Shown: positions 13,913-60,520, counted from the first letter of the stretch. The stretch is 64,000 nucleotides of DNA from an uncultured Gammaproteobacteria bacterium (GCA_964635045.1 CAZWMJ010000004.1:2205-66204), one strand, 5' to 3'. A program made the numbers and translations. Notes: generated from the letters alone by a model not told the origin.

Positions 13913-14398
13913 TTATTGTTTGTTTTCACAAAAACTCAAACGGTATATTGTTCCAGCATAATCCGGATTGGCAAAATAAGGCGTGGTTATATCAACACCT
14001 AACCGGCAGGCATCTGGTTGGCTAACCCCCAAAAACTTAAGAAAGTCCCCTTCGGCCTCACTTCTGACCTCAGAAAACGGAGAAGAGAGAATGGAAATTA
14101 AGAATTTATTCTCCGGGGAAAAATAAACAAACTGATAGAGTCCTTGATCCTTGATAAGGATATCACCCCTGTTGGTGGTTTCTTTTGCTGACAGGAAAAA
14201 ATTGTTGACTAAAACACCGGAAATATTAATTTTCCCCCCAGCTGGAAGAGTTAAGGAGGGAGTCGGGATTGGGGTGAGGAGGGGAGGAACGGGCGCTGGT
14301 TTATTTTTTGACTGCGATAAAAAAAATATAGTAATAATGCTTATTATAAAGACAAACAAAAGAACCAAAAACATTTTTTTTCTCATATCGTGTTTCAC
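13913..14398 (-). CDS. membrane-anchored exported protein, last gene of the T4SS-like operon
   Basis: 161 aa with an N-terminal TM anchor, a Pro-rich linker (PAPVPPLLTPIPTP) and a small globular domain. Its start overlaps the stop of the upstream gene by 4 nt. Confidence 0.6.
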   Translation of the reverse strand: MKHDMRKKMFLVLLFVFIISIITIFFLSQSKNKPAPVPPLLTPIPTPSLTLPAGGKINISGVLVNNFFLSAKETTNRGDILIKDQGLYQFVYFSPENKFLISILSSPFSEVRSEAEGDFLKFLGVSQPDACRLGVDITTPYFANPDYAGTIYRLSFCENKQ

Positions 14399-16209
14399 CT
14401 AATAATACCACACACGCGCGCGGCTGACCAAGCAGACCAATTGTTACCGCTACCTGAAATTGCTACAGCCTTGTTAATATTGTTATCGGAATCTTTAAGG
14501 CCTATTTCGCATGTGTTTAGCTTAGCTTGATCACTAATTTCACACCATGGAGGCTTAAGACCATAATCCTTGAATGCCCCGGGGCAACGAGTTGAGGGCA
14601 AAAGATTTATTTGAAAAAGACCAACGCTATAGTCTGCGGTCGCCCCCTTCCTCTTGGTGTCTTCTTCTTTATCGTTGGGATCTCCTCTTAGGCATCTATT
14701 ATTGAGAGCAAAGGGATTACTCCCGCTTTCTCTTTGACAAATCATCGAGGCATTCTTGACTGCTGTTTCATCCGGGAAATATTTCCTTAAATTATCAACA
14801 GAGCAAGGTCCTGATCCCACAGGACAAGTCCCTATCTGTGGATTAGGAGGTGTTGTGGTTGGAGAAGAACCGCCGCCTCCGGGAGTGAGAGGGGAGGAGC
14901 TAGGGAGGATATCCCTTGGGGCAAAGCCGACAATGGCAAAAGTACCGGTAAGGATAAATATAATAATAAGAATTGGGGTGGAGGCAGCTAAAAACGTCAA
15001 TAGAGTTCTGATAAATTGCATCAATAGTTTATTACGCAACTGATTAAGAGGATTACCGGGGGTTTTGGGCAGCGGCGGTTTCTTTTTCTTTGGCAGGAAA
15101 CGATTGGCCAGATCCATGCCCCGCGACCGCCCGCCATGCCCTCCTCCTTGTGGCGGTGAAGGTTCTTGCGGTTGTTCGCCGCCGCCATCATCACCGCCAA
15201 GTCCTGAAGGAATTGATTGGCCGGAGGGCATGACCAAGCCGCCGGATGGGGCGGTTGGCTGTTGGCTTAGGGCTTGCTGTAAACGTCGGTCAATCTCTTC
15301 TCGTGAGATTCCTGAATAAGCGGGGCGCGTTCTTTCCGCCACCCTGATTTGCCTTCCTCCGGTACTAGCCATTTGTTCGGTCTCTTTGATATCTTGAGCG
15401 GCTTTTATTTGGTCGTTAGACATGGCGTATTGTTTGGCCTTGTCTTCGTATTGATAAGCAAACTTTAGATATGATCTTCTTTCAACGGCCCGGCGGACAT
15501 CCTCTAGTCTGGTTGCGGGGTTAATTTTTTGTAAGTGGGCAAATCTTGCTTGTGTGTGTTCGTCAATTTCCAAGCGCAGTCTTTTAACTTGCGGGTCATC
15601 GTCGGGATTTTTGTAAATTTTCGCTTTCTCTTTATCATAACGTTTAACTCTGCCGGCAAATTTTTTATTATTCCTAAATTCTTCTTCCGTCTCTTGATCT
15701 ATCGGCGGTTTATCGCTGTTATCTAAAGAGCCATAGAGGTAATCCAAGCCTTCTTTGGAAGTGAAATCTTTGCCCGGATTTTTTTCCAGCCATTCTTGTT
15801 TTTTTCTCTCCAAAATAGCCCGATAATCTTCATCGTCCTGCATGATTTTTGGCCGGTTGAGGAACATGGCGGCTAAAAAAGGAAGCATGGCTAGATCGGA
15901 AATAGCGGAAGGCGCGCCATGTGAAGGAAGCCCCAGTTGCTTATCGAGTTCTTGTCTTTCTTCTCTTTGCTCCCGAACGTAAGAATAGGCCTCTATGACT
16001 TCTTTGCCCACCCAAATGCTGGTATCAACATGAAGTTCGGGATGTTTCTGCGCCCAAGCGAAAAATCTTTCTCTGGTGGTAAAAAACATTCTATCCTGAG
16101 GATGCATTTCTGCAAATTGATGCCAGGAAGCGGCCAGTTTATCCGCTTCTTTGGGTCTTTTTCTGATGAGGTCTTCCAGCTCTTGGAAATTTCTGATATC
16201 TGGTTCCAT
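14395..16209 (-). CDS. bitopic protein with C-terminal lysozyme-like (VirB1-type lytic transglycosylase-like) domain
   Basis: 604 aa. The layout is a charged helical N-region of about 380 aa, one TM helix (LLTFLAASTPILIIIFILTGTFAIVGF), a Gly/Pro/Thr linker, then a Cys-rich domain. That domain has QRESGSNPFALNN (candidate catalytic Glu-Ser) and ADYSVGLFQIN, which resembles the lysozyme/SLT motif DYGxxQIN. Confidence 0.6.
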   Translation of the reverse strand: MEPDIRNFQELEDLIRKRPKEADKLAASWHQFAEMHPQDRMFFTTRERFFAWAQKHPELHVDTSIWVGKEVIEAYSYVREQREERQELDKQLGLPSHGAPSAISDLAMLPFLAAMFLNRPKIMQDDEDYRAILERKKQEWLEKNPGKDFTSKEGLDYLYGSLDNSDKPPIDQETEEEFRNNKKFAGRVKRYDKEKAKIYKNPDDDPQVKRLRLEIDEHTQARFAHLQKINPATRLEDVRRAVERRSYLKFAYQYEDKAKQYAMSNDQIKAAQDIKETEQMASTGGRQIRVAERTRPAYSGISREEIDRRLQQALSQQPTAPSGGLVMPSGQSIPSGLGGDDGGGEQPQEPSPPQGGGHGGRSRGMDLANRFLPKKKKPPLPKTPGNPLNQLRNKLLMQFIRTLLTFLAASTPILIIIFILTGTFAIVGFAPRDILPSSSPLTPGGGGSSPTTTPPNPQIGTCPVGSGPCSVDNLRKYFPDETAVKNASMICQRESGSNPFALNNRCLRGDPNDKEEDTKRKGATADYSVGLFQINLLPSTRCPGAFKDYGLKPPWCEISDQAKLNTCEIGLKDSDNNINKAVAISGSGNNWSAWSAARVCGIIR

Positions 16210-16224
16210 AAATTAATGATAACA

Positions 16225-18108
16225 CTAAATGACGACCGGTTTTGCCGATTGAGGTGGTTGAGCTGTAATCGGGGGAGTTTTTAAGGGAGCCGTAGGTGTG
16301 GGCGTGGGGGGAGGAGGGGGTTGGACTGCTTGTTTTTGCATTTCCGCAGGATTGGTGGTGATCATCTCGTGTTCAAAAGGAGCGGCCACCACCCGAATGG
16401 CCACGTGATTTTGTCCGGCGAAAAACAGTCCTTCTCCAATGTTTGCCGAAAGAAGAAGCTCTTTTTCCCCCTCTGTCAGATAAAATGTTTTGGCTACCAG
16501 ATCAACTTCGGAAGTGCCCTGTTTTAACAATAATTGCAGCGAGGAGTTGGACAAAACCGCCTTGCCGTAATCCGTGGAGAGAAAATCTTCCACGTCTTGG
16601 GTGGCGGTGGTTAGCCCCAGATAATACTTGCGCGCCCGCTTGGCGATGCCATAGACAAAAGAGGCGGAATCTTCATATTTCATCATGTACCAAGCCTCGT
16701 CCAGCACCAACAGCCGTTTTTTGAGGGTTTTTCTAATTCTTGTCCAAACAAAATCCAAGATGATATGCATGGCAATAGGACGAAGTTCTTCCTCTAAGGC
16801 CTTAATGGAAAAGACGGTTAGAGGATTTTTGATGCTAAAGTTTGACTGCTGATTAAAAATGCCGGACAGACTGCCTTTGATAAATTTTTCCAAACGCAAA
16901 GCCAGATCTTTGGCGCTGTTATCTTCCATACCCAGCAGCGTTTTGTAAAGATCTTCCATCAGGGGCGGTTCTTTGCTTTGTGTTGCCGGATCCAGAGTGA
17001 TGCCTTTTTGCTGATAAGTTGAAACTAACGCCCTGTCTAAAATTGCATCCTGCCCCGCATCCAGCTCTCCCAAAACAATTCGCAGCAGGCCGTGAAGGGA
17101 GAGAATTTTAATACCAAGCTCATTTTCTCCCTCTTCATAAAGAGCTGACAGATCAAACGGATTTATTTTTATCGGGGCAGAAGGAGTAAAAGCCACATGT
17201 TCTCCTCCCAGCGTTGTGCAAAGAGCCTCATATTCTCCTTCCGGATCCACCACGATAACCTCAGTCCCAAACATTAGTTGTCTGGTAACTTCCAGTTTGA
17301 TAAGATACGATTTTCCGGCACCGGATTTTCCCAAAACCACCTCATTGGCATTTTCCAGTGAGAACCGGTCAAAGATAATCAGGGAATTGTTTTGGGCGTT
17401 GATGCCGTATAATACTCCCTTGTCTTGAGTGAGGGTGGCCGAGGTAAAGGGAAAGGTTGATGCCAAGGACGTGGTATCCATGTTTCTGGTAATAAAAAGT
17501 TTATCCTGCCCCATTGGCAGACTTGACTTAAAGCCTTCTTCTGTTTGAAGAGTGGCTGTTTTGGCCACCAGCAGAAGAGAAGAAAGTGTAATAGTTAATC
17601 TTTTTGACGCTTCTTCCAGCTCCTGTTGTGTTTTGGCAATGATGGTGACATACAAACTAAATTGAAAAAAACGCTCCACTCCTTTGGCCAGTTCGTCTTG
17701 AAGACCCATGGCATCTTCCAGGGCCGCTCTTACTTTTGGATCAATCACCTGATTTTCTTCAACCTGAGAGGATAGGGTGGCTTCCATCTCGGCGATTTTC
17801 CGTCTCAGGTCGGATAAAACATCGGCCGAGGTGGCAGGATAGATAAACATGGAAACATACAGTTCGTGATCAAAATCAATAACGGGAGATAGCCAGTTGG
17901 GAGACACAAATCGGGGATAACCGACCACAAAAAATGTTTTGTAAAATTTCTCTCCTACCCGAATAGAGCGAAAGTCAACCTCGATAGAGGATGGAGCGAT
18001 CACGTCGGTAAGCCCCACCATGCCTTTTTCTATGGGGACTGAGGCCGCGTTTGACGGGGTGGCCTTTTTCTCGGGTTGGTTTTTGTTTTTTTTAGAGCCA
18101 AAAATCAT
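16225..18108 (-). CDS. virB4: type IV secretion ATPase, VirB4/TrbE/PrgJ family
   Basis: 627 aa. Walker A is VLGKSGAGKSYLIK and Walker B is LLVLDEAWYMM. The N-terminal domain is typical of Gram-positive VirB4 homologs, and the tail is Pro-rich. Confidence 0.88.
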   Translation of the reverse strand: MIFGSKKNKNQPEKKATPSNAASVPIEKGMVGLTDVIAPSSIEVDFRSIRVGEKFYKTFFVVGYPRFVSPNWLSPVIDFDHELYVSMFIYPATSADVLSDLRRKIAEMEATLSSQVEENQVIDPKVRAALEDAMGLQDELAKGVERFFQFSLYVTIIAKTQQELEEASKRLTITLSSLLLVAKTATLQTEEGFKSSLPMGQDKLFITRNMDTTSLASTFPFTSATLTQDKGVLYGINAQNNSLIIFDRFSLENANEVVLGKSGAGKSYLIKLEVTRQLMFGTEVIVVDPEGEYEALCTTLGGEHVAFTPSAPIKINPFDLSALYEEGENELGIKILSLHGLLRIVLGELDAGQDAILDRALVSTYQQKGITLDPATQSKEPPLMEDLYKTLLGMEDNSAKDLALRLEKFIKGSLSGIFNQQSNFSIKNPLTVFSIKALEEELRPIAMHIILDFVWTRIRKTLKKRLLVLDEAWYMMKYEDSASFVYGIAKRARKYYLGLTTATQDVEDFLSTDYGKAVLSNSSLQLLLKQGTSEVDLVAKTFYLTEGEKELLLSANIGEGLFFAGQNHVAIRVVAAPFEHEMITTNPAEMQKQAVQPPPPPTPTPTAPLKTPPITAQPPQSAKPVVI

Positions 18109-18746
18109 ACGTTTCCACCGGTTGTAATAATTGACGGTTTTTCATCGGTTTCAATATGGACTTCCTGATAATCGTCGTTATAGAAACTATAAAAAAGCGA
18201 AACCAGCTCTTCTCTTTTTAAGATTTTTGACCGAAGACCAAGTCTGCCGAATTGTTCACTAAGAGAAGTGGCTTTGGTGTGAAGGCCGGTTTTGGCCGAA
18301 GATCTAAAATCGTTCCTGCCAAACGCTCCGCCAACGCCTTTCTCCAAAGAGGTGTAGGGCAAAACAATATAGAATTTTTTATCTAAAACAGCGTTAACGC
18401 TGACCAGATTTTCCACGAAATCTTTATAAAGTGTTCTATAAGATTTTGTCTTTTCGTCTTGGGCTTTTTCCAGTTCCTCATTCAGCAGTTTAACATAAGA
18501 GCCGATGCTGACCCGTTTATTTTTAATCAAAATTTGAATAGGGAACGGCAGGGAGTTTAAAAGCGAGGCGTAAGCATAAATTTTGCTGTTTTGTTCTTCT
18601 CTGGAAAGAAGAGCAAAATTGGCCGCCTGTATTTCGATGATTAAGCAGGCGTTGCCGGAGGAAAAAAAGACCATATCTTCCACGATGTCTTCTATTTCCG
18701 TAAACTTTTGGGTTGATGATTTAGTTTTTTGAATTTTATCTGCCAT
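18105..18746 (-). CDS. T4SS operon protein, possibly a VirB4 N-terminal-domain-like accessory protein
   Basis: 213 aa and soluble. It overlaps the virB4 start by 4 nt. The segment IEDIVEDMVFFSSGNACLIIEIQAANFALLSREEQ resembles the opening of VirB4 N-domains. This is a weak by-eye call. Confidence 0.5.
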   Translation of the reverse strand: MADKIQKTKSSTQKFTEIEDIVEDMVFFSSGNACLIIEIQAANFALLSREEQNSKIYAYASLLNSLPFPIQILIKNKRVSIGSYVKLLNEELEKAQDEKTKSYRTLYKDFVENLVSVNAVLDKKFYIVLPYTSLEKGVGGAFGRNDFRSSAKTGLHTKATSLSEQFGRLGLRSKILKREELVSLFYSFYNDDYQEVHIETDEKPSIITTGGNV

Positions 18747-18749
18747 AAT

Positions 18750-19964
18750 TTAATTAAAAAGCGACCTGCGCAGTTCCTCCCGCTCATCCGTTGAAATAAC
18801 CTCCAGCGGCAACATAGCAACGCCTTCGGCGATTATTTCCACAGCGTCGAATTTATGCTGGCCTTTGGGATCTTCAAAAACCACGGTGTAGGTGCCATTG
18901 CTAAGAGAAGTTGCCGAGGAGAATTGGCCTAAGGCGTTGGTCTTAAAAGCCCTGACCGCATTGCCGTCTTTGTCTTTTACCTCAACTAAAATATTGGGCA
19001 GGACATTATTTCGAGAATCCTTGATGATCCCGCTTATCAAGTTGGGAAAGTCCGCTCCGGCGATGATTGGCGCGCCGACAGTTTTACTTAAGTCTTTGGG
19101 CACGGTTCTGACATTGGGAGTGACTGTTTTGGTGGGGGTAAAACCTGTTTGTTTTTGCAGATTAAATTGTTTCTGCAAAGTCAGCATCTGATCTTCAAGC
19201 GCTTTTTTCTCCGACAAAGTTTGCTGCAACTGCGCTTCCAGCTCCAGCACTTTTTCATGAATACCGGGAGCGGAGACGACATCCTTTTTTTCTTCCTCTT
19301 GTTTTTTGGCGGCCTTAAGCGCTTCTTTAATAAGGTTTGTTTCCTTTTCTAGCTCTTCGCTGGTTTTTTGCTCCATGACATTAGTCGGTTTTTCTTCTTC
19401 AAATTGCGGCTCTGTTTGTTCTGTTGGTAATTGATTCCCTATTTCTTTAATTGTTAATAATCGGGGTTTGTCGTTAGCTGGCTGTTTCGTATTCTTACCG
19501 GGAGAAAAAAGCGAGGAAATGCTGCTAAAAAAAACCGTTTCTTTTTCATCGAGTTTGCCGGCCGGTTTTTTAGCGGTAGCGCTTAAAAAACGTTCCAGCT
19601 TTTCTTTGCTTTCGGGAGCGGTTGTTTTTGCTTTGGGATGAGATTTTTTGGGTGGAGGAGGAAAAGACAGGCTCACTCCCGCTTTTTGAAAAAGATATTG
19701 ATTGGGGCTAAACATGGCTCTTAAGAAATAAGAAACCATGGTATCCAATGGTCGTCCGTCAATGGGAACGAAAGATAGGGAAAAACCAAAGCCGGCGCAA
19801 AAAAACGAGATAAAAATTTTTATAAAAAATGGCAAAGGAGAGATAAAAAACAAGTAGGCCAAAAATGCGCCGCCGGCCAAATAAGCAAACTGCTTAATGG
19901 TCATATCTCCGATCAGCTTAAACTGAAAGCCGGTGATGTCTTGCGGAATGGGATGATTTTCCAT
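18750..19964 (-). CDS. PrgI/VirB3-like membrane protein fused to a coiled-coil and a CarboxypepD_reg-like beta-sandwich
   Basis: 404 aa. The N-terminus PIPQDITGFQFKLIGDMTIKQFAYLAGGAFLAYLFF plus two TM helices matches the PrgI family pattern. The C-terminus ISGIIKDSRNNVLPNILVEVKDKDGNAVRAFKTNALGQFS...GTYTVVFEDP is a typical carboxypeptidase-regulatory-like fold motif. Confidence 0.65.
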   Translation of the reverse strand: MENHPIPQDITGFQFKLIGDMTIKQFAYLAGGAFLAYLFFISPLPFFIKIFISFFCAGFGFSLSFVPIDGRPLDTMVSYFLRAMFSPNQYLFQKAGVSLSFPPPPKKSHPKAKTTAPESKEKLERFLSATAKKPAGKLDEKETVFFSSISSLFSPGKNTKQPANDKPRLLTIKEIGNQLPTEQTEPQFEEEKPTNVMEQKTSEELEKETNLIKEALKAAKKQEEEKKDVVSAPGIHEKVLELEAQLQQTLSEKKALEDQMLTLQKQFNLQKQTGFTPTKTVTPNVRTVPKDLSKTVGAPIIAGADFPNLISGIIKDSRNNVLPNILVEVKDKDGNAVRAFKTNALGQFSSATSLSNGTYTVVFEDPKGQHKFDAVEIIAEGVAMLPLEVISTDEREELRRSLFN

Positions 19965-44804: not shown

Positions 44805-45476
44805 ATGATTTTTCTTATCTTATTTTTAGCGGAGATCTTGATGCTTTTTTTCCTGTCCCGTTTTGTAACGCGTTTGCTGTCGCAGGTTTTTTTCCGCCTA
44901 AGCCGCAGTCAAACAAAAACCATCTATCTTCTGTCTTTTCTTTTTCTGCCGGGTGTAGTTATTCACGAATTAGCCCATTTGTTAACGGCGGCGGTGTTGT
45001 TGGTGCCGGTGGGAGAGGTGGAGTTTATACCAAAAGTCACTGATGGGGGAGTCAAGCTGGGCAGTGTAAACATCGGCAAAACAGATCCGTTTAGAAGAGC
45101 TATTATCGGGGTGGCGCCGGTTTTGATCGGGATGATGATACTGTTGGGAATTGGCTACTATTTTATACAGAGTAATTCCATTATTTATACTATCGAGTCG
45201 GGAGCTTTAAGAGTATTTTTATACGCGATAATTGTTTATTTCCTGTTTGCTATTAGCAATACCATGTTTTCCAGCAGGAAAGACGTGGAGGGATTGTTGG
45301 AAGTGGGTTTGGTGGTCATTATTCTTTTTATAGCTCTTTATTTTACCGGTTTTCGCGTCAACTTTTCACTATCTGAAAATTTATCCCAATTCTTGAAAAC
45401 ATCGGATGTTTTCTTACTAATACCTCTTTCTATAGATGTGGTCTTGTGGGGAATTATCAAAATTTTCCGTGGATGA
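44805..45476 (+). CDS. polytopic membrane protein with HExxH motif (M50/DUF3267-like putative metalloprotease)
   Basis: 223 aa with 5-6 TM helices. The motif VVIHELAHLLTA lies within or next to a TM segment. Confidence 0.55.
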   Translation: MIFLILFLAEILMLFFLSRFVTRLLSQVFFRLSRSQTKTIYLLSFLFLPGVVIHELAHLLTAAVLLVPVGEVEFIPKVTDGGVKLGSVNIGKTDPFRRAIIGVAPVLIGMMILLGIGYYFIQSNSIIYTIESGALRVFLYAIIVYFLFAISNTMFSSRKDVEGLLEVGLVVIILFIALYFTGFRVNFSLSENLSQFLKTSDVFLLIPLSIDVVLWGIIKIFRG

Positions 45477-46272
45477 TTGGTCCATGACCTTTGCCAATTT
45501 TTAATGTTTGGCCTTTTTTAATAGCAACGTTTACATAATTTTTGGCAGTTCCCACCGCTTCTTTAATATTTTTTCCTTTGGCCAACTCGGCGGCGATGCA
45601 AGAGGCTAGTGTACAGCCCGTGCCGTGTGTGTTTTGAGTATTAATTTTTGGCGCGGTAAACTCATGAAAGCGCTTACCGTCAAATAAAATGTCGATAACA
45701 ATCGAATGATGAATGATAAGTGATGAAGGATGAATTTTTTCAAGGTGGCCGCCTTTTATCAATACATTTTTAGCGCCCATTTTATGCAGGATGACAGCGG
45801 CCTTTTTCATCTCGTTAACATTTGTAATTTTTAGACCGGTTAACTCCTTTGCTTCGTCAATGTTGGGGGTAACAATAGCGGCCAGAGGCAGTAATTTTTT
45901 AACCAATGATTTAAGCGCCTCTTTTTCCAAAAGCCGCCCGACTGTTTTGGAAACCATGACCGGATCAACCACCAGTTGTTTTATTTTGTAACGCGCTGCT
46001 TCTTCAACCACTGTTTCCACAATTTTTTTGTTAACCAGCATGCCGGTTTTCCAAACGTCGGCTCCGATATCCGACATCACCGAGCTAATCTGCAGTTTAA
46101 CAAACTCCGCCGGCAGCGGAAACACGCCGTCCAAACTGACCGTATTTTGGGCGGTTACCGCCGTTACAGCGCTTAGGCCATAAACTCCTCTGGCAAAAAA
46201 GGTTTTCAAATCCGCCTGTATTCCTGCCCCTCCGCAAGGGTCGGATCCGGCAATAGTGAGAACTTTATACAT
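45457..46272 (-). CDS. thiD: hydroxymethylpyrimidine/phosphomethylpyrimidine kinase
   Basis: 271 aa. Motifs are [22 protein letters not shown] and [17 protein letters not shown]. Confidence 0.93.
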
Positions 46273-46358
46273 AAAATATAATTTTCAATTTACAATTTAT
46301 AATTCTCAATAAATTTACAATGTTTCAATTTGAAAATTAGGTCATTGAAAATTAATAA

Positions 46359-47270
46359 TTAAAAATTTTTAAGATGGTTGAAGCCTCTTGCCTCTAACCG
46401 TTTTTTTCTTCCTTTGACATCCACAATCCACCACCCATCCTTTTTATCAATAATTTCTCCAATCACAGTAATCTTTGTTCCGGTTTTCTTAAATATTTCC
46501 GTGATTAATTTCTCTGTACTTGCCGGCGATGCGGTAAAGCACAGTTCGTAATCTTCTCCTCCATTGAGAGCCGCATCGAAGGAGGCAGAAGGAGCAATGG
46601 GCAGTTTATCGGCAAAAATACGAACTCCGACAGCGCTTTCCTCGCAAATATGAAGCAAGTCCGAAGACAATCCATCGCTTAGATCAATCATGGATGTAAC
46701 AACGCTGCTTCTCGCAAGAATTTGTCCTTCTCTTATCCTTGCCGCCGGCACTACCGCTTTACGTCCCAGCGCACCTGTTAACAATACCGCATCTCCCACC
46801 TTTGCCCCATTTCTTAAAACCAAATGTTTTTTATCAATTTCTCCCAAAACAAAAATATCAATCACGAGTTGTTTACCTGATGAGATATTCCCGCCGATAA
46901 GTGAGACGCCGTAGTCCTTGCACGCCTTCCCAAAACCTTCATAAAGTTCCTCCAGAAAATCTCTATTTTTCGGAATCACCAGCGAAACCAGAATATGTTT
47001 TGGTGTTCCTCCCATGGCCGCAATGTCGGAAAGGGCCACCGCCACCGCCCGCTGTCCCAATTGTTTACCCGAACCCGCGCAAATTTTGTTAAAATTTGTT
47101 CGGGCGCGGGTAAAATGCACTCCCTCAACCTGAGTGTCTGTTGTGACTAAAAGATATTTATCACTTCTGCAAAGCAAAACAGCCGCATCATCGCCTATAC
47201 CGACAATCACGTCGTTGCCATAGGCAGGTAATAACTTTTTGACTTTTTCAATAAAAGAAAACTCGTTCAT
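46359..47270 (-). CDS. thiL: thiamine-monophosphate kinase
   Basis: 303 aa. Motifs IGDDAAVL, TTDTQVEGVHF and GGNIS are AIR-synthase-like ThiL signatures. Confidence 0.9.
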   Translation of the reverse strand: MNEFSFIEKVKKLLPAYGNDVIVGIGDDAAVLLCRSDKYLLVTTDTQVEGVHFTRARTNFNKICAGSGKQLGQRAVAVALSDIAAMGGTPKHILVSLVIPKNRDFLEELYEGFGKACKDYGVSLIGGNISSGKQLVIDIFVLGEIDKKHLVLRNGAKVGDAVLLTGALGRKAVVPAARIREGQILARSSVVTSMIDLSDGLSSDLLHICEESAVGVRIFADKLPIAPSASFDAALNGGEDYELCFTASPASTEKLITEIFKKTGTKITVIGEIIDKKDGWWIVDVKGRKKRLEARGFNHLKNF

Positions 47271-47899
47271 TTAATTAATTCCCGTAATCTGCGCGTTGCC
47301 TCTCTGGGATTCTCCGCTGCCATCACTGCCGAGATGACGGCAATTCCCCCCGCTCCGGCTTCTATCACCGAGGCGGCGTTATCAGTATTGATGCCGCCAA
47401 TGGCAATGACAGGGATTGATACTGCCTCCGCGATTTCTCTTAATCTCTCAAGTCCGATCGGCTCTCCGGCGTCTTGTTTGCTATTAGTTGCAAAAACCGG
47501 ACCAACTCCCAGATAATCCGCTCCATCTTTTTGGGCTGTTAGCGCTTCGGCAACAGTGCTGACCGATACCCCCAAAATTTTATCCTGCCCCAACTTTATT
47601 CGCGCTTCTGCTACCGGCATATCATTTTGCCCAATGTGCAAACCCGCGGCTCCAATTAAGAGCGCCACCGTCAGATTATCATTGACAATCAGGGGAACGG
47701 CAGAGGGCTGAAGGACAATAAGAAGTTTAAGTCCCAGCCTAACAAAATCTTTTTCCTGAGCTTCTTTTTCCCGCAACTGCACCATGGTAGCCCCGCCTTC
47801 TACCGCCTGTTTGACAATGTCAACCAGCGGGCGATTTTGGGCGGCGGCGCGGTCGGTAATAACACAGAGACGAGGGTTAAATTCTTTCATTATCCGCAA
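47267..47899 (-). CDS. thiE: thiamine-phosphate synthase
   Basis: 210 aa. Motifs are LCVITDR, MVQLREK, YLGVGPVFATNSK and IAIGGI. It overlaps thiL by 4 nt. Confidence 0.92.
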   Translation of the reverse strand: MRIMKEFNPRLCVITDRAAAQNRPLVDIVKQAVEGGATMVQLREKEAQEKDFVRLGLKLLIVLQPSAVPLIVNDNLTVALLIGAAGLHIGQNDMPVAEARIKLGQDKILGVSVSTVAEALTAQKDGADYLGVGPVFATNSKQDAGEPIGLERLREIAEAVSIPVIAIGGINTDNAASVIEAGAGGIAVISAVMAAENPREATRRLRELIK

Positions 47900-48210
47900 T
47901 TATCGAAGCCAAAAACGGTAATACAGTTGGCGCCGGTGACAAAACCGATGAGATTAATTATCAGAAAAGAAAGCAGAATTATCAGCAGTCCAAGAATGGC
48001 ATACATAATAGTATGTCTGGCCGACTCGATTTTTTTGGGGTCGCCTCCCGAGGTGATAAATTTTATACCGGAGAAGATGATGAAAAAAACAGCGGCCGCG
48101 CTGGCAAAAATCAATGCCGCCTTGACCGCGTTTTGAAAGACGGCGGGGATGCAATTAAGCGTGGCAACGCCGTTGACAACGCAACCTTTAACAATATCGT
48201 TCCAGTCCAT
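47890..48210 (-). CDS. VirB2/TrbC-like T4SS pilin-type mini protein, paralog 1
   Basis: 106 aa. It has a two-TM hairpin with a conserved turn (IIFSGIKFITSGGDPKKIESARHTIMYAILGLLIILLSFLI) and Cys pairs at both ends. Its stop overlaps the thiE start by 10 nt. Confidence 0.65.
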   Translation of the reverse strand: MDWNDIVKGCVVNGVATLNCIPAVFQNAVKAALIFASAAAVFFIIFSGIKFITSGGDPKKIESARHTIMYAILGLLIILLSFLIINLIGFVTGANCITVFGFDNCG

Positions 48211-48282
48211 AATGTAAGATTATCAGAGAAGCGCCGAAAAGGCAAGAAAGAAGAGGGTTTAGAGAACTAGGACCTAGAGGAA

Positions 48283-48636
48283 CTAAGGTAAGGTAGGAAG
48301 CTTAAGATCAAAAATTGGACTTCCAGTGAAGAAGAAAACCAACAGGTTCAGAATGAAAAAGACTAAAAATACTATAACCAGTCCAACGATGGCCGCCACC
48401 ACGTGATTGCGGGCTTCTTCCAGAGCTGTTTTATCTCCGCCCGACATAATCCATTTGATGCCTCCCCAGATTAGGAAGATCAGGGCAACGACGATTGCGA
48501 GGATAAAGGCCAAAGTGATAAGACTGCCAAGGGTTGATCCAAAATTGCTTGATGTCAGTCTGCAAAGCTTTTCAAACTGTCCCGGCGGACAGGCCAGAAC
48601 ATTGCCGGTTGTAACTGGTATAGGTGTAGGCGTCAT
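48283..48636 (-). CDS. VirB2/TrbC-like T4SS pilin-type mini protein, paralog 2
   Basis: 117 aa with the same hairpin core: IFLIWGGIKWIMSGGDKTALEEARNHVVAAIVGLVIVFLVFFI. Confidence 0.65.
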   Translation of the reverse strand: MTPTPIPVTTGNVLACPPGQFEKLCRLTSSNFGSTLGSLITLAFILAIVVALIFLIWGGIKWIMSGGDKTALEEARNHVVAAIVGLVIVFLVFFILNLLVFFFTGSPIFDLKLPTLP

Positions 48637-48653
48637 ATTTTTTCGTTATCACT

Positions 48654-48682
48654 ATAATATTCAGAATTTCCCCGTTTGTCAA
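48654..48682 (-). promoter_or_regulatory. putative sigma70-type promoter for pilin paralog 2 (TTGACA, 17 nt spacer, TATTAT)
   Basis: Minus-strand reading gives TTGACA aacggggaaattctgaa TATTAT, ending 17 nt before the ATG at 48636. Confidence 0.45.
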
Positions 48683-48709
48683 GAGGCAACTAGTTAAAAT
48701 TGTTGCCTC
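48683..48709 (-). terminator. 8-bp stem-loop between pilin paralogs 3 and 2 (weak terminator or attenuator candidate)
   Basis: GAGGCAAC at 48683-48690 pairs with GTTGCCTC at 48702-48709 across an 11-nt loop. No clear U-tract follows on the minus strand. Confidence 0.3.
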
Positions 48710-48783
48710 GCAGACCCGCCATAAATCGCAACATGAGCCGCGCTACGAATAGTAGGTAAGGCGAATGCTAAGATTAGGCTGGG

Positions 48784-49104
48784 TCAAACCAGCGGGATGC
48801 CAAAAAAGTAATTGATGATTCTCACCAGTAAAAATGACAGCAGTATGACTACCAATCCAAAAATGGAGTAAATTAGCGTCTGTCGGGCTTTCTGCAGATT
48901 TTCTTTGTTTCCCTGCGATGTGATCCAGCCAATTCCTCCCCAAATCAAAAAAACAAGCGCCAGCGCAATGGCGGAGAGAAACAGAATTTCAACGCCTAGT
49001 TTAAGAATATTTTGACCGAAAGGCCCGGCCTTATCGGACAACTGTTTTACGCCGGTGGGAACGGGAACATCAAAACCCGGTATGGACAAAGATATATATT
49101 TCAT
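48784..49104 (-). CDS. VirB2/TrbC-like T4SS pilin-type mini protein, paralog 3
   Basis: 106 aa with core VFLIWGGIGWITSQGNKENLQKARQTLIYSIFGLVVILLSFLL. Its start overlaps the stop of 49101..50630 by 4 nt. Confidence 0.65.
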   Translation of the reverse strand: MKYISLSIPGFDVPVPTGVKQLSDKAGPFGQNILKLGVEILFLSAIALALVFLIWGGIGWITSQGNKENLQKARQTLIYSIFGLVVILLSFLLVRIINYFFGIPLV

Positions 49105-50630
49105 TTAAATCCCGGAATATGCAAAATATCCACTCCTATCACTTTTAATATTACCACGGAAAAGATGATAAATAACAGCCCTACAATGGCGGAAGTCAGC
49201 GTTTCTCTGGCTCCCTGAATGGCCTCCGGATTGCCCTGAGCCAGCATCAGCTTGTAGCCGGAGTAAATAATAAGTATTAAGGCGATGCCGCCGGAGATAC
49301 CTAATAGAATTCCAAAAATTCTGCCGATAAATTTAGCCGGATCGACATTAATTTGGCCTAGAGCAGTATCCACCGCCTGACATTTTCCATTACTGATTGT
49401 TTTGCAGGGTGGAGGGAAGGGGCTTAGGGTAGGATTGCCGCTGGGGAAGATAATTGTTGGGATTGCCGGGACTAGCGAGGATGCCGAAACAACTGTAAAA
49501 GTGGGTCTGGGGGTACACACTTCGCCATTTGAATCTTTGCCTATGGCCGTATATTGTCCGGCAGGAAGATTATCCCCCAGCTTTAATATGACAGTTCCGT
49601 TAGCGTCTGCCTGTTTTCCAGGTTCGATGATTTCTGGGTTTGGATCGCCCGGTTTTATCAACTGACTTTGGTATTGAGCATTAGGATTTGCATTTATGAT
49701 AACCAAACTTACCGGTTTATTTATTTCAGGCTGGGTAGGCATGATTTTGCATGATAAATTCTTAGTGGGAGAAGTGAGGACAAACTTAAACTTAGAATTT
49801 AATCCGACTCTAGTACAATCAAGCCCGAATTGGTTACCAGGGTTTTTGCCGGTAATAAAAATATCCATACATAATGTCTGTTCTTCTTTGTATTCGTTGG
49901 GTTTATTGAGAGAGACTATGACAATATCGTTGGAGTTTGCACTTGGATAGATGGCTGCAAATCCGGGTCCATATGGCGGTTGTTTTTCTCCATGCCACCA
50001 AAAAACATAGTTGTTACCGGTTTTTACGTCGTTAAGAATAACTTGGGGCGTGTCGTTCTTTCCAAACTGTGGGTCTGTGGGTGTTTGCTCTGCCCGACCT
50101 CCGCCTACTTGTTGGACAACAAGTAGGCTATTATAAATCACTTGGCCCCCCTCAAATTTTCCCTTGCCTGCACTTATGCCGAACATTATTTTTTTTGTCC
50201 CAACTCCTTGACATTTTGGACCTAGTCCATAGGGAGTTAATAAAGTAGCATTTATTTCATCTTCTGAAGAACGAATAACTTCGCCCTCATTTTTTTGACC
50301 TTGGTTGGGATTGGATAATGATGCAACACATGGATCTTTAGAACCTTGATCCGCGGTAGTCAAGTCAAATCTATAACGATTAGTTGGGTCTTTTGAGTAA
50401 TCGGGAAAATGATCATTGATATCGCTATTAGTGAGCTTCATGGATATTTTCGCAGTATCCAGTCGGGGAGTGTCGGTTGTTTGACCTTGAGCATCTTCAT
50501 AGGTAAATTTGGCAGTTACCGCCACAGCGTAAGCGGGGGATTTGAGAAACAGGGGAGAGAGAAAAATACTACCAATCCCGCTAAGCGGGACCAATACTAC
50601 CAATAACCCAATAAAGAAAACTTTGTTCAC
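49101..50630 (-). CDS. large exported protein ending in a pilin-type two-TM module (adhesin-pilin fusion candidate)
   Basis: 509 aa. The layout is an N-terminal signal anchor, a Thr/Asn/Gly/Pro-rich domain of about 400 aa that looks beta-rich, then LILIIYSGYKLMLAQGNPEAIQGARETLTSAIVGLLFIIFSVVI. That last block is homologous to the three mini pilins. Confidence 0.65.
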   Translation of the reverse strand: MNKVFFIGLLVVLVPLSGIGSIFLSPLFLKSPAYAVAVTAKFTYEDAQGQTTDTPRLDTAKISMKLTNSDINDHFPDYSKDPTNRYRFDLTTADQGSKDPCVASLSNPNQGQKNEGEVIRSSEDEINATLLTPYGLGPKCQGVGTKKIMFGISAGKGKFEGGQVIYNSLLVVQQVGGGRAEQTPTDPQFGKNDTPQVILNDVKTGNNYVFWWHGEKQPPYGPGFAAIYPSANSNDIVIVSLNKPNEYKEEQTLCMDIFITGKNPGNQFGLDCTRVGLNSKFKFVLTSPTKNLSCKIMPTQPEINKPVSLVIINANPNAQYQSQLIKPGDPNPEIIEPGKQADANGTVILKLGDNLPAGQYTAIGKDSNGEVCTPRPTFTVVSASSLVPAIPTIIFPSGNPTLSPFPPPCKTISNGKCQAVDTALGQINVDPAKFIGRIFGILLGISGGIALILIIYSGYKLMLAQGNPEAIQGARETLTSAIVGLLFIIFSVVILKVIGVDILHIPGFK

Positions 50631-50671
50631 TCTTTCATGGTAAACGACCTGGGAAATTTTTGCAACATCTA

Positions 50672-51802
50672 TTATCTTCTTCCCGTGGCTATTGGCTCCA
50701 GAAATTGATCGTACATGGGTTTCATCACGATATATCCTAGTATTGCCAGCAATCTAAAAATCAAACCGAGAGGTCCTTTTTGGTCTTTTAATCTTAAGTA
50801 TTCCGCCAAACGAGCCAGTTCTTGGAAATCTTTGAATTCTTGGCTGTTTTCGTCAAGACCTCTTTTTTGGGCTTCTTCTTTAATGCTGTCAGAAATTTTT
50901 TTGTTGTTTTCAACATTTTTCCACAGTCTGTTTTTTTTCATATCTTCATTAACCTGCCCCATGTCGCGGGTGGCCTCCGCTTTTTGACGGTAGTATTCTG
51001 TTTCCGTTTGTCTACCTATTTCTTTTTCATTAAGGGTTATTCCTTTTTCTGCCATCTTAATTCGTATCCGATCTCTGATCAGGCCCCGATAATACCGGGG
51101 ATCTATTTTGTCATTCTTTAAGAAAATATTTGCTCTCTCTCTTTTTACTTCATCAGTTAGTTGTTGAGCGCCTGCCGGTTGTTCTGGGCCATCAGCCGAG
51201 TCAGGCTTGGCTTCTGCTGCGTCTGGCGCGGGTTCTTCGGGACGCTCGGCATCGGCGGCCTGAGCGGTTGACGCAGTTTCACCATTTGCTGGGGTTTCTC
51301 CCTCGGCAGCAGTGGGGGATGCTAGTCCGCCTTCGGCAGGTGTTGATGATCCTACTGGTTCTCTAGAATCTGCTGGTCTAGCCTGAAGATCTTCTCTCAT
51401 TTGCGCCATATCACCGCCTACAGGAAAAGGAGGTCTTTCTGCGGCAACGCTCGCGGCTGGTTGTGGCACTTCTCCATCTGTTGGCGCTTGGTCGCCGGCT
51501 ATCTCGTGTAGGGCGGCATCAGCGCCTTTTCCTTCAAGATTTCTCGCTGTACCATCCGCAAAAATTTGGTTTGCTTCCGCTACCGCCGCCGCTTTTTCTG
51601 CGTCCGATGGTCCGGCGCCGTCTTTTTTTCCTCCCTCCGCGTCTGTATCTGTTGATTGTTCAGCCCCGCCGGCGACTGGGGCGGGTTTTCCGCCTTCTGC
51701 CGCAGTCCCGCTTAGCGGGGCGGCTGGCGCTCCTCCGCCTGTATCTACTGCCGCTGGCGGCGGTGGAGCTCCTGTATCTGGTGATGCTACTCCTGCTGCC
51801 AT
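50672..51802 (-). CDS. tail-anchored protein with Ala/Gly/Pro/Glu-rich disordered N-half
   Basis: 376 aa. The C-terminal 150 aa, including the TM tail (AEYLRLKDQKGPLGLIFRLLAILGYIVMKPMYDQFLEPI), are paralogous to 53641..54354. Confidence 0.6.
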   Translation of the reverse strand: MAAGVASPDTGAPPPPAAVDTGGGAPAAPLSGTAAEGGKPAPVAGGAEQSTDTDAEGGKKDGAGPSDAEKAAAVAEANQIFADGTARNLEGKGADAALHEIAGDQAPTDGEVPQPAASVAAERPPFPVGGDMAQMREDLQARPADSREPVGSSTPAEGGLASPTAAEGETPANGETASTAQAADAERPEEPAPDAAEAKPDSADGPEQPAGAQQLTDEVKRERANIFLKNDKIDPRYYRGLIRDRIRIKMAEKGITLNEKEIGRQTETEYYRQKAEATRDMGQVNEDMKKNRLWKNVENNKKISDSIKEEAQKRGLDENSQEFKDFQELARLAEYLRLKDQKGPLGLIFRLLAILGYIVMKPMYDQFLEPIATGRR

Positions 51803-51810
51803 ATTTTTAA

Positions 51811-52146
51811 TTAATTATTTGTTTGCAACGATTTAGCCGTTGTAATAGCTCCTTCCATATTGCCTTGTTTAATATAATCTCGCATGGAATTTAAGGCGTC
51901 GTCTCTTTTTTGATCGCTGATTTTTCTAAATTCTTCCACATACAATTCTTGCGCCTCTTTATATTTTCCTCCCAGCGTCTTTAATTTATTTAACAAATCC
52001 TGCCAGTCCGTAATGGGCAGAACCGCCAAAAAATCCGCCGCCAGCTGACGGCTTTTATCAACATCAATTTTATTTTCCCGCAGATGAACAATTATTAATT
52101 CCACCAATTCTTTTTTGACCTGTTCCACTTCCTGCTGAAGATCCAT
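51811..52146 (-). CDS. small helical protein, unknown function
   Basis: An internal Met (MDLQQEVEQVKK...) is chosen as the start. The longer track ORF (to 52305) would overlap the upstream regulator gene by 113 nt. Confidence 0.5.
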   Translation of the reverse strand: MDLQQEVEQVKKELVELIIVHLRENKIDVDKSRQLAADFLAVLPITDWQDLLNKLKTLGGKYKEAQELYVEEFRKISDQKRDDALNSMRDYIKQGNMEGAITTAKSLQTNN

Positions 52147-52192
52147 CAATTTAATGGTGGCACAAAAGAGAAGTTGTGTCAATGTTTGCGAC

Positions 52193-53425
52193 TTACGGTA
52201 AAAATCTAAATCCCCGACCCTTGACGGTGAGAAGATGTTTGGGGTTGTCCGCTTCATCCTCGATTTTTTTGCGCAGTCTGTGAACCATCTGATCCAGCGC
52301 CTCATCGCTGACTCCGGTTTGGGTTTTACTGTCTGTCCAAACAGTATTTATGACCTCATCCCGCTCCACCACCCGATTGGGATGACCAATTAAAAATTTG
52401 AGCAGTTTGAATTCTTGGGCTGTCAGGTCAACAATTGGATCATCTCCAAAATAAATCTCGTTGGAAGAATCATTAAGTCTGATTGTTTTTGGCACCAGCG
52501 TTTGGGGAAGACCAAGTTTGACAAATTCATTGTAAAGAGGCGGGGCGGGCTTATTTCTATCTTGGGTGGGCAGCGACTGCCAAATTTCCAGCAAAGAGTT
52601 TTTGATAAGATTATGGGAAAGTAAAAAGTCGGTCAACCCTTCGACTCCCTTCGGTCGCTCAGGATTGCCTAGGGCAATTTGCGCTGACAGTTTCATCAAT
52701 TTGCTGTGGCCGCCGGTTAATCTAACAATTTCTTTTTTGACCGTTTCAGGAAGCGATTTACCATATTCTTTTTCTAAAACAGCAAGCCTAAAGTTATTGG
52801 CGACTTCATCGTAGGGTTCAAGATAGATCAGATTTTCCGCAAAAAATTCATAGAAGGCCTTCATAACATTTTCCGCTAACAGCTCTTTCATAGGCCTATG
52901 AGTGGAGAAAACAATCGGTATTTTGCCGCCTCTAACTCGCAGGCTATAGAGACCGGCATAAAAATCGGGGGGAATTTTATCGGTAAATTCGGAAAAGCGG
53001 TCGAAGAGAAAAACGACGGTCAACTGCTGGATGGCCTTTTTGAAGTTTTGGAAAAGAACCAGGGGGTCAGCCAGTTTGAGCGCTTCTCTGAAAAGCGGAT
53101 ATATTTGATTGTGTAGTTTTTTATCTTTCTCAACACCGGTAAGTAAAGCTAAGAATAAAAATTTGATTAATTCCACAGTTTCAAAGCTGGGGATTTCGGC
53201 AAAATTGACATAAACAAAGAGATAGCCTCGAAAGGCGTCCCCTTTTGAAGCTAAATGATAGTTTCGTAGTTTCTGATGGTAAGCGAGGAGGCGCAGCACC
53301 GTTGAGCGGCCGGCGCCGGGAGGGGAGATGAGTTGGCAGGACTGACCATGGATGACAAAGCCTAAAATCTGGCTTATTTCCTTTTCTCGGGCAGTGATGG
53401 GATATTGTGTTTCGAAATGGTCCAT
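52193..53425 (-). CDS. AAA+/STAND-like ATPase fused to an OmpR/PhoB-type winged-helix DNA-binding domain
   Basis: 410 aa. The P-loop is ISPPGAGRSTVLRLL and a Walker B-like motif is VVFLFDRF. The C-terminal trans_reg_C pattern is LTAQEFKLLKFLIGHPNRVVERDEVINTVW...LDQMVHRLRKKIE...LLTVKGRGFRF. An in-frame mini-repeat is inserted (GNPERPKGVEGL). Confidence 0.75.
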   Translation of the reverse strand: MDHFETQYPITAREKEISQILGFVIHGQSCQLISPPGAGRSTVLRLLAYHQKLRNYHLASKGDAFRGYLFVYVNFAEIPSFETVELIKFLFLALLTGVEKDKKLHNQIYPLFREALKLADPLVLFQNFKKAIQQLTVVFLFDRFSEFTDKIPPDFYAGLYSLRVRGGKIPIVFSTHRPMKELLAENVMKAFYEFFAENLIYLEPYDEVANNFRLAVLEKEYGKSLPETVKKEIVRLTGGHSKLMKLSAQIALGNPERPKGVEGLTDFLLSHNLIKNSLLEIWQSLPTQDRNKPAPPLYNEFVKLGLPQTLVPKTIRLNDSSNEIYFGDDPIVDLTAQEFKLLKFLIGHPNRVVERDEVINTVWTDSKTQTGVSDEALDQMVHRLRKKIEDEADNPKHLLTVKGRGFRFLP

Positions 53426-53430
53426 AATGA

Positions 53431-53553
53431 TAGACGGTAGAAGATTGAAAATAGAAGGTAGATTTTTGAAGGTAGAAGCTGGAAGATAGACAAATCAGAT
53501 CTAACTTCTATCATCCATCTTCAAATTACCATCTTCTACTTTCTACATTCTAT
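53431..53553. promoter_or_regulatory. purine-tract / pyrimidine-tract motif array in divergent intergenic region (candidate operator array)
   Basis: GGTAGA(AG) occurs at 53436, 53457 and 53471, and GATAGA at 53485. Inverted counterparts follow: CTTCTATC at 53505, CATCTTC at 53516, CCATCTTCTAC at 53529, and further TTCTAC/TTCTAT repeats. Confidence 0.4.
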
Positions 53554-53640
53554 AGTCTTTCTTAATTATCGTCAATCTGTAATCTATCTGTCATGTAAAT
53601 ATCAAGCACTTCGGCTTCGTTCAGGTTAAACTGCCCTCAT

Positions 53641-54354
53641 ATGGAAAAAGCAGCAGTAGAACAGCAAATTTATCCGGCGGCTCAACCCGTCTCTGACGCG
53701 GTTGTAGCTTTGCCTTTAACAGCAGAACAACAAAGAGCGGAAGAACAGCAAGCCGTGATGGAGGCGGAGCGATTATTGAGAATGGAGCCGAAGAATGCTT
53801 TGGAAGAGATTAGAGGGGAACTTCGGCGCTCGGCATTGGACAAAAATCAAACTCCCGATGAAGAAGAAATCGGTCAAGCGGCGGAAGGTGAATTAAGTCA
53901 AAGAACAAAACCGGCAGTAGAAAAGCGCGAGGCGGAAGCTTTCCTAAAAATGCCCAAAGAAGCGGCTTTGCAGGTGATAAAAGAGACGCTTAGAAATAAA
54001 TATCTGCTGGAAGGTAAAGGGGTGGTAAGCGATGGGCAGTTGTTGAAGGAGGCGGAAGACCAGTTTTACTACCAAAAAGCGCAGGCTCTCACTATATTGG
54101 GAAAGGTTAATCGGAAAATTACCGAAGACAAGCTATACCGAAAATTGACCAAGGATACAAGACTGATGGGCAGAATTGCCAAAGAGGCTAAAGAGGGCAA
54201 AGATCCTAACGTACTTCTTTTGGCCGAGTATCTGAAGAAAAAAGATAAGAAAGGATTAACCATGTGGCTGATGCTGGCTATCTTGGCAATATTCGGCAAG
54301 GTTATCTACGATAATCTGTTTGAACCAATGACTTTGGGAAAGGACAAAATATGA
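53641..54354 (+). CDS. tail-anchored helical protein, paralog of the 50672..51802 C-half
   Basis: 237 aa. The C-terminus is AEYLKKKDKKGLTMWLMLAILAIFGKVIYDNLFEPM. Its stop overlaps the next start (ATGA). Confidence 0.6.
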   Translation: MEKAAVEQQIYPAAQPVSDAVVALPLTAEQQRAEEQQAVMEAERLLRMEPKNALEEIRGELRRSALDKNQTPDEEEIGQAAEGELSQRTKPAVEKREAEAFLKMPKEAALQVIKETLRNKYLLEGKGVVSDGQLLKEAEDQFYYQKAQALTILGKVNRKITEDKLYRKLTKDTRLMGRIAKEAKEGKDPNVLLLAEYLKKKDKKGLTMWLMLAILAIFGKVIYDNLFEPMTLGKDKI

Positions 54355-60402: not shown

Positions 60403-60487
60403 TGGCGGAGGAAGAGGGATTCGAACCCACATGTCCTTTCGGACCCCAGTTTTCAAGACTGGTGAGCCACCATTGCTCAATTCCTCC
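60403..60487 (-). tRNA. tRNA-Ser (anticodon UGA), CCA encoded
   Basis: Manual fold. Acceptor GGAGGAA pairs with TTCCTCC. The anticodon arm is CCAGT-CTTGAAA-ACTGG. There is a long variable arm and T-loop TTCGAAT, with one U-U mismatch in the T stem. Confidence 0.8.
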
Positions 60488-60520
60488 AATGTTTACACTG
60501 AGGAGTGAAACGACGAAGTG

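Follow-up and report, generated by a model that had tools for sequence, protein, structure and literature searches.

A 64,000-nucleotide stretch of DNA (GCA_964635045.1, CAZWMJ010000004.1:2205-66204; hereafter the window) carries four tandem genes for VirB2-like pilins of a type IV secretion system (T4SS) that run, on the minus strand, directly into the thiamine salvage genes thiE, thiL and thiD. The window is the chromosomal origin region of a Microgenomates-like bacterium of the Candidate Phyla Radiation (CPR, Patescibacteria). It contains the origin-region genes yidC, jag, dnaA and dnaN, and its assignment is based on the named homologs of the large pilin (Candidatus Microgenomates, Levyibacteriota and "Patescibacteria group"). 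We found that the gene order conserved behind such pilins in related genomes is broken in the window right after the last pilin gene, and that thiE sits where prgI is normally found. We consider it probable that a thi cassette entered at this position, lost its thiamine pyrophosphate (TPP) riboswitch, and came to be transcribed from a conserved promoter within the pilin array, with translation of thiE coupled to that of the last pilin gene. In appearance the adjacency is a case of promoter capture rather than a vitamin-to-pilus link by design.

The pilin genes lie within an uninterrupted minus-strand gene string (45457-53425) that extends from a regulator gene to thiD. In order of transcription they are the large pilin (509 aa, 49101..50630), pil3 (106 aa, 48784..49104), pil2 (117 aa, 48283..48636) and pil1 (106 aa, 47890..48210). 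All four open reading frames (ORFs) exceed the gathering score of the PF18895 T4SS_pilin profile (26.6 bits), with 32.1 bits at residues 434-498 of the large pilin and 33.8, 37.0 and 35.4 bits for pil3, pil2 and pil1, respectively. This profile search confirms the T4SS pilin homology that the initial annotation of the window had proposed from a common motif. The motif itself is borne out by alignment: identities to the 106-aa protein of 47890-48210 are 28-34%, residues G48, G56, A64, R65 and G74-L75 are invariant, and the loop between the helices reads SGGD/QGN-x5-AR. An AlphaFold2 model of pil1 is a helical hairpin with helices at 23-53 and 58-91. The reported 4-nt overlap at 49101-49104 is also real, placing the pil3 start on the large-pilin stop. 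Formation of a filament by these VirB2-like proteins is putative.

As a comparison set, 80 metagenome loci were fetched by alignment of large-pilin homologs and searched with the window proteins; 26 of them, with at least 2.5 kb of sequence past the pilin array, were informative about what lies behind it. The recurrent order is regulator, large pilin, pil3, pil2, pil1, prgI, a gene x and virB4, followed by dnaA on the other strand. Directly after pil1, prgI was found on the same strand in 21 of the 26 informative loci, thiD in one, and nothing recognised in four. Exactly one large and three small pilins were present in 16 loci, and the best match of each window pilin holds the same position in related loci (identities to the window of 45-59% for pil1, 47-57% for pil2, 30-48% for pil3, and 53-65% for the C-terminal domain of the large pilin). 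The pilins are in tandem, as described initially, but they are not a loose set of paralogs: the four genes make up a fixed module whose positional orthologs recur in many CPR genomes. As far as our literature searches went, this fixed orthology with a large Ig-like pilin at the head is new.

In the window, 28 kb separate prgI-virB4 from pil1. The displaced T4SS core (14395..19964, minus strand) adjoins dnaN/dnaA and has matches to PF12666, PF19044 and PF18896. It begins with the prgI/VirB3-like gene (18750-19964), which is separated by a 213-aa ORF from a gene for a VirB4-like ATPase (16225-18108; PF19044, 98 bits), and continues with an SLT_3 lysozyme-like protein (14395-16209; PF18896, 24 bits, under the 27-bit cut-off). 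The simplest reading is that the canonical operon, ancestrally near dnaA, was split directly past pil1 in the window lineage; the core would have moved off, probably under a promoter of its own, and thiE-thiL-thiD would have taken the former prgI position. Upstream of the displaced prgI, a TTGCAA-17-TACACT element (region 19965-20040, read by eye) stands with its ATG 7 nt further on and may now drive the core genes. The adjacency of vitamin and filament genes, which had been called unexpected, is explained by this break. Nor is the proposed link between the two general, as a thi gene stands behind pil1 in just one of the informative loci, where thiE-thiL is on the opposite strand.

The identities of the three thi genes stand, with all of them over the NCBIfam equivalog cut-offs. 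They encode, on the minus strand, thiamine-phosphate synthase (thiE, 207 aa from its ATG, 47267..47890; TIGR00693, 210 bits, cut-off 145), thiamine-monophosphate kinase (thiL, 46359..47270; TIGR01379, 251 bits, cut-off 184) and hydroxymethylpyrimidine (HMP)/HMP-P kinase (thiD, 45457..46272; TIGR00097, 326 bits, cut-off 205). The start of thiL overlaps the end of thiE by 4 nt (ATGA), and a gap of 86 nt separates thiL from thiD. A 10-nt overlap between pil1 and thiE, as annotated initially, holds only for a TTG start at 47899. The junction reads TGC GGA TAA TG AAA GAA, in which the real overlap is the 1 nt shared by stop and start in TAATG. The ATG at 47890 is almost certainly the thiE start, since the resulting MKEFNPRL is the conserved N-terminus of related ThiE proteins and gene callers use the 207-aa form. 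Translation of thiE would then be coupled to pil1 via the common base. At its 3' end, thiD is convergent with, and overlaps by 20 nt, a plus-strand gene for a 223-aa multi-pass membrane protein (44805-45476) with a HELAH motif and no Pfam match.

Linkage of thi genes to the pilins does not extend beyond a small clade and one relative with a different arrangement. The nearest ThiE among 5.8 billion proteins is 64% identical and is encoded on contig L084, which has the order regulator, small protein, variable protein, 513-aa large pilin, three small pilins, thiE. On this contig and on L088, whose ThiE is 98% identical to that of L084, thiE overlaps pil1 by 4 nt, and a stop/start overlap at the pil1/thiE junction is kept in three genomes. 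In the relative L136 (pil1 54% and ThiE 65% identical), large pilin, pil3, an inserted gene, pil2 and pil1 are followed by a 32-nt spacer and thiD on the same strand, with no prgI within 8 kb. Here thiL and thiE are on the opposite strand and convergent to the pilins, indicating that pilin-driven transcription of thiE is not a conserved requirement. In a neighbour-joining tree the ThiE proteins of the window, L084/L088 and L136 cluster with CPR-like ThiE on long branches, apart from those of Chloroflexota-type operons. A scan of GTDB genomes with ThiE gave, among its best 80 loci, mostly non-CPR matches (Bacteroidales, Clostridia, Methanobrevibacter) of 39-55% identity; only the Kaiserbacteria locus L007 was useful, and no close species representative was present.

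The predicted absence of a TPP riboswitch was confirmed both across the whole window at the gathering score and in 45000-54000 at E<=10. The same scan found none in L084, L088 or L136, and it detected the riboswitch in the positive controls L007 (55.6 bits), L086 (57.3), L087 (78.6 and 76.0) and L170 (63.4). In L170, a sister lineage, the riboswitch is immediately ahead of thiE. Other ThiE relatives are arranged differently. In L007 a transporter is followed by thiE-thiM-thiL-thiD, and in Chloroflexota-like loci energy-coupling factor components are followed by thiE-thiM-thiL-tenA-thiW; two short CPR-like contigs have an intergenic region ahead of thiE. As riboswitches are found in related thi operons and in none of the clade, a stand-alone riboswitch-controlled operon is the likely ancestral state, from which the clade lost the riboswitch.

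A candidate for the promoter that now serves the thi genes is found ahead of pil2. This site, P_pil2 (TTGACA-17-TATTAT, 48654..48682, minus strand), has 11 of 12 matches to the promoter consensus, is the best in 45000-53700, and forms a conserved island inside diverged intergenic DNA. All 15 related loci compared have TTGACAA-17-TAnnAT ahead of their pil2 ortholog, the spacer measuring 17 nt in 14 and 18 nt in L118. From the -10 box the ATG is 7-10 nt away in 11 of the 15 and 19 nt away in L105; in L084, L088 and L136 ATG codons start 1 nt past the -10 box, the called pil2 start of L084 being 8 nt past it. Such spacing, typical of leaderless or near-leaderless mRNAs, is found again ahead of the window's prgI and suggests that transcripts of either kind are usual for this operon. 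Compared with L084/L088, the window has an ACG in place of the ancestral ATG and lacks 62 nt encoding the leader MKKASGF...AQA (window 48637-48682 versus L084 5767-5870). With both lost, translation of pil2 must begin at a new ATG 17 nt past the -10 box. The same 117-aa form of pil2 occurs in the independent assemblies L001 and L002.

Abutting the -35 box of P_pil2 is a structured intergenic spacer (48683..48783, minus strand; minimum free energy -35 kcal/mol, z -3.8) with the hairpin GAGGCAAC-N11-GTTGCCTC. Analogous, non-homologous hairpins are found at the corresponding position of L084 (z -3.2) and of L136 (z -5.4), with none in L109. The hairpin is a possible terminator or insulator of the upstream unit. 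From this arrangement we infer two transcription units, one from the regulator to pil3 and the other comprising pil2-pil1-thiE-thiL; thiD is perhaps included and possibly has an extra promoter in the 86-nt gap, where two weak promoter-like sites occur (46328-46281). A conserved TTGCCT-15-GATAAT block before pil1 was considered as a promoter and rejected, as it missed the scan criteria in the window and in other loci. The gene string is tight, as described initially, and co-transcription of thiE with the pilins, proposed in the same annotation, is the most likely reading. Transcription from P_pil2 together with coupling to pil1 would make expression of the salvage enzymes independent of TPP and link it to pilin expression. 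The conserved promoter before pil2, and thi capture with riboswitch loss, are also new as far as our literature searches went.

Several observations weigh against this account, and the first of them concerns transcription. A promoter-like site, CTGATA-17-GATAAT, lies inside pil1 (47985-47957), some 67 nt ahead of the thiE ATG. With the two sites in the thiL-thiD gap, it raises the alternative that pil1 and the thi genes are neighbours by compaction only, a promoter in the 3' part of pil1 driving thi and one in the gap driving thiD; unrelated genes are tightly packed in CPR genomes. However, the internal site matches at only 9 of 12 positions, in a scan that returned 25 sites versus a mean of 14.5 in shuffled controls, and its conservation is uninformative because it falls in coding sequence for a pilin transmembrane helix. 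Moreover, the pil1-thiE junction leaves no room for a terminator, and its stop/start overlap has persisted in the three genomes mentioned above. We regard adjacency with independent transcription as rather unlikely.

The remaining points against promoter capture come from the distribution of the cassette. The full thiE-thiL-thiD order behind pil1 is confirmed only in the window; in L084 and L088 the 60-70 nt past thiE are AT-rich and hold no thiL start. A thi gene stands directly behind pil1 in at least two arrangements, with thiE first in the window clade and thiD first in L136, and this could reflect selection for linkage rather than accident. The concatenated pilin tree, with 19% bootstrap and a topology that varies with the distance method, does not show whether the thi-bearing lineages are sisters, so that one origin of the insertion behind pil1 or two are not distinguished.

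Selection for linkage would fit an adaptive coupling: the cell would contact its host, or take up host metabolites, through the pilus or secretion apparatus, and the salvage enzymes would be co-expressed with it, turning precursor processing on upon host engagement. Consistent with it, the tight pil1/thi junction persists in lineages as diverged as the window, L084 and L136 (ThiE 64-65% identical), two different thi genes are found at the junction, and riboswitch feedback is gone. In addition, in tblastn searches with L007 and L087 queries, neither the window nor the loci of L084, L088 and L136 gave a match to ThiM, NCS1 transporter, TenA or ThiW. Without thiM or a transporter, thiazole phosphate must come from elsewhere, and a review speculates about the CPR T4SS and pilus as an uptake conduit (PMC12857230). 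Against adaptive coupling, a thi gene follows the pilins in a single informative locus, thiE-thiL of L136 runs on the opposite strand behind an upstream region of its own, and other CPR-like thi operons stand alone under riboswitch control. Within the clade ThiE evolves much faster than the pilins (65% versus 85-89% identity), which is not suggestive of tight co-adaptation, and the absence of thiM refers to 64 kb of the genome. Little in these data argues for a functional vitamin-to-pilus link, and a biochemical connection between thiamine and the filament is probably absent; we hold adaptive coupling to be about as doubtful as independent transcription. A bolder proposal strikes us as improbable: that the CPR secretion apparatus and pilus are the route by which this epibiont would draw thiamine precursors from its host, possibly phosphorylated ones such as thiazole phosphate because no thiM was seen, and that the wiring of thi genes (thiD in L136) behind the last pilin and the riboswitch loss were selected, perhaps in two separate events, as a means of tying precursor processing to engagement with the host. 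Were independent, recurrent fusions to prove true, they would bear on what the CPR secretion system transports.

It could also be argued that the small ORFs are generic two-helix membrane proteins and that there is no filament and no pilus. The four proteins have no match to the classical TrbC/VirB2 family PF04956 at E<=0.1. A search of the PDB with the pilin profile gave nothing significant (best E 0.4, an unrelated transducer), and neither did Foldseek with the pil1 model, whose top match, at E 2.3, was the Aeropyrum pernix conjugation pilus 8dfu. A signal peptide (MKK...) is present in pil2 orthologs and lost from the window pil2, and the N-terminus of the large pilin includes a hydrophobic segment; pil1 and pil3 begin about 30 residues ahead of helix 1, apparently without a signal peptide. 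Monoderm T4SS are described in one survey as generally lacking pili (PMC12102498). This alternative is very unlikely given that all four proteins exceed a curated threshold for T4SS pilins, that all four match the Mycoplasma family NF045849 of integrative and conjugative elements (ICEs) over the two-helix region (21-27 bits, E 2e-6 to 1e-4, under the 40-bit cut-off), that prgI/VirB3-virB4 comes directly after the orthologs in 21 of 26 loci, that the top structural match, not itself significant, is a conjugation pilus, and that an equivalent pilin array is reported to be essential in Southlakia epibionticum (PMC10633639, Wang et al. 2023).

The large pilin differs from the small ones by its ectodomain. 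In an AlphaFold2 model (mean confidence pLDDT 76, pTM 0.62), an N-terminal hydrophobic, signal-like segment is followed by three beta-sandwiches (about 38-175, 181-285 and 293-381; strands 38-381, pLDDT mostly 70-93), a disordered Pro-rich linker, a small beta hairpin and two long helices (431-463 and 468-502). The prediction agrees with the initial description of a pilin domain carrying a beta-rich ectodomain of about 400 aa, which consists of three Ig-like beta-sandwich domains. Foldseek returned generic tandem Ig/FN3 arrays only (E about 1e-8, TM 0.13-0.28), among them contactin FN1-3, LILR, a Haloferax S-layer protein, the FdeC adhesin and alpha-2-macroglobulin domains. The role as an adhesin or tip subunit that had been suggested is putative, being read from fold class only.

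Conservation is concentrated in the anchor. More than 100 CPR proteins of 280-700 aa share the C-terminal 100 residues of the large pilin at 60-77% identity; their N-terminal parts are mutually unrelated and in some cases contain FN3 or CarboxypepD_reg domains. For the ectodomain itself, an exhaustive search of 1.84 billion cluster representatives found 26 relatives, none informative on function (a word-indexed search gave 2). The two close relatives illustrate the pattern. Between L084 and L088, regulator, small protein, pil1 and ThiE are 94-98% identical, and in the large pilin (3401-4942 versus 7387-8892) the anchor is 87% identical versus 41% for the ectodomain; the tail-anchored protein encoded upstream (2394-3404 versus 6422-7384) is 63% identical. 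Divergence of both surface proteins suggests allele replacement or strong diversifying selection, and a conserved anchor with a rapidly exchanged ectodomain would fit a host- or phage-facing recognition protein. A diversity-generating retroelement, considered on account of bAvd-like genes in the arrays of relatives, was rejected as the source of this variability, as divergence to about 41% identity over some 370 aligned residues far exceeds variation of that type; neither a reverse transcriptase nor a template repeat was searched for. Genes for four-helix-bundle proteins (23S_rRNA_IVP/bAvd-like, PF05635/PF22296) recur in or beside the pilin arrays of relatives (L084 4974-5348 and 1545-1907; L088 8924-9298 and 5573-5935; L089 2641-3006; L136 10867-11244). 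A gene of this kind is absent from the window array.

Three further minus-strand genes precede the large pilin. The first gene of the module (52193..53425) encodes a regulator with a P-loop NTPase-like N-terminal part and an OmpR/PhoB-type winged helix (Trans_reg_C, PF00486, 74 bits); it is 76% identical in L084, and 27 of the 80 related loci have a homolog upstream of their large pilin. It is followed by a small conserved protein of unknown function (51811..52146; 111 aa from MDLQQ, with the mechanical ORF extending to 52305) that is 92% identical in L084. For this protein no family was found at thresholds, Pfam LPD39 being below cut-off with the long ORF form (E 0.007, 16.4 bits versus 27), and the 111-aa form had no NCBIfam match. 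The third gene (50672..51802) encodes a variable Ala/Pro/Glu-rich protein of 376 aa with a C-terminal hydrophobic tail, 36% identical to its L084 counterpart. It is a paralog of a divergent 237-aa ORF on the plus strand (53641-54354), with 30% identity over the C-terminal 137 aa (E 6e-15); the common region holds an ...AEYL+KD+KG... motif and the hydrophobic tail. In L084 the orthologs of pil1 and pil3 are 85% and 89% identical, respectively, to those of the window.

The DNA between pil1 and the T4SS core contains, besides thiE-thiL-thiD, two giant ORFs, two AbiE-type toxin genes, a LytR-amidase protein and others. We considered whether this 28-kb segment is a recent mobile island between two AbiEii genes and found no support for it, as the two proteins are 27% identical and long flanking repeats are missing. 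An AbiEi/AbiEii-type toxin-antitoxin cassette (20103-21016) lies directly upstream of the displaced prgI and is flanked by 60-nt direct repeats (88% identical) at 20004-20084 and 21080-21139. The repeats consist of short palindromes spaced by TTTTGA, for example CGCGTCAGACGCG and CCAAGTCGGACTTGG (minus-strand reading), and may be a footprint of cassette insertion. The giant ORFs (1839 aa and 2173 aa) have in common a perfect 300-nt direct repeat (30787-31086 and 38454-38753), and more repeats of 56-189 nt (74-98% identity) occur within the 1839-aa gene and between the genes for proteins of 964 aa and 793 aa. Elsewhere in the window, a 693-aa protein near dnaA (9095-11176) matches the HopA1 effector family PF17914 barely above its cut-off (23.9 versus 22.7 bits). 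Six tRNA genes, four for tRNA-Ser (tga, gct, cga, gga) and two for tRNA-Arg (ccg, gcg), are packed into 2.6 kb (60403-62968) with small ORFs between them.

In the one CPR species amenable to genetics, the T4SS apparatus is essential. The large pilin at the head of the fixed set, with its conserved anchor and hypervariable Ig-like ectodomain, is a concrete candidate for a host-recognition component, one that a published survey reports as missing. The leaderless-type promoter before pil2, conserved across distant genomes, provides a testable map of the operon. Finally, the thi fusion presents a case in which a vitamin operon regulated by a riboswitch would have lost that control and become, within a reduced genome, a passenger of a structural operon.

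Pilin arrays of this kind in CPR bacteria, and their location near dnaA, have been published before. One survey describes VirB2-like PF18895 arrays of 2-11 genes in 383 CPR assemblies, especially Microgenomates (PMC12102498, Quinonero-Coronel et al. 2025), and the location of the CPR T4SS near dnaA is likewise described in this literature (PMC12102498, PMC10633639, PMC12857230); in the last of these sources, the pilus is treated as inferred even in cultivated CPR bacteria. Like those arrays, the window has sequence-divergent tandem pilins and a PrgI/VirB3-VirB4 system near dnaA. It differs from them in that its array is 28 kb from prgI-virB4 with thiE-thiL-thiD behind it, and in that its four genes are positional orthologs rather than free-varying. 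A further difference is the Ig-like ectodomain of about 400 aa on the first member, which did not appear in the passages of PMC12102498 and PMC10633639 returned by term searches; one of these two sources states in such a passage that no adhesins were detected. As to secretion type, no relaxase was seen in the window, and the system is of the monoderm (MPF-FATA-like) type.

Compared with VirB2/TrbC/TraA of diderm T4SS, the small pilins are similar in their length of about 100 aa, their two hydrophobic helices with a short basic loop, and, at orthologous loci, their place at the head of a VirB3-VirB4 operon. By contrast, they lack PF04956 and significant structural or sequence matches to solved pilins, most seem to have no signal peptide, their host is a monoderm, and their filament is putative. 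Pilin-like proteins of the Mbov_0395 family (NF045849) from Mycoplasma ICEs are related to all four window proteins without including them as members, which fits the monoderm ancestry proposed for the CPR system. TPP-riboswitch thi operons of Kaiserbacteria (L007) and Chloroflexota-like loci (L086/L087) share with the window the enzymes and the order thiE...thiL, thiD (ThiE 54-59% identical), whereas the window has no riboswitch, thiM, transporter, TenA or ThiW, and its thiE joins directly onto the end of a pilin gene, where the others have a 5' leader. A literature search on Patescibacteria and thiamine salvage brought up no pilin-thi linkage by title or abstract. Finally, the large pilin may be compared with the surface adhesins and tip proteins VirB5 and PrgB. 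It is not homologous to them, its ectodomain is covalently fused to a pilin-type membrane hairpin, and an adhesin role is putative; by analogy, however, its role could be similar, as an exposed, rapidly diversifying multi-domain ectodomain tied to the secretion apparatus.

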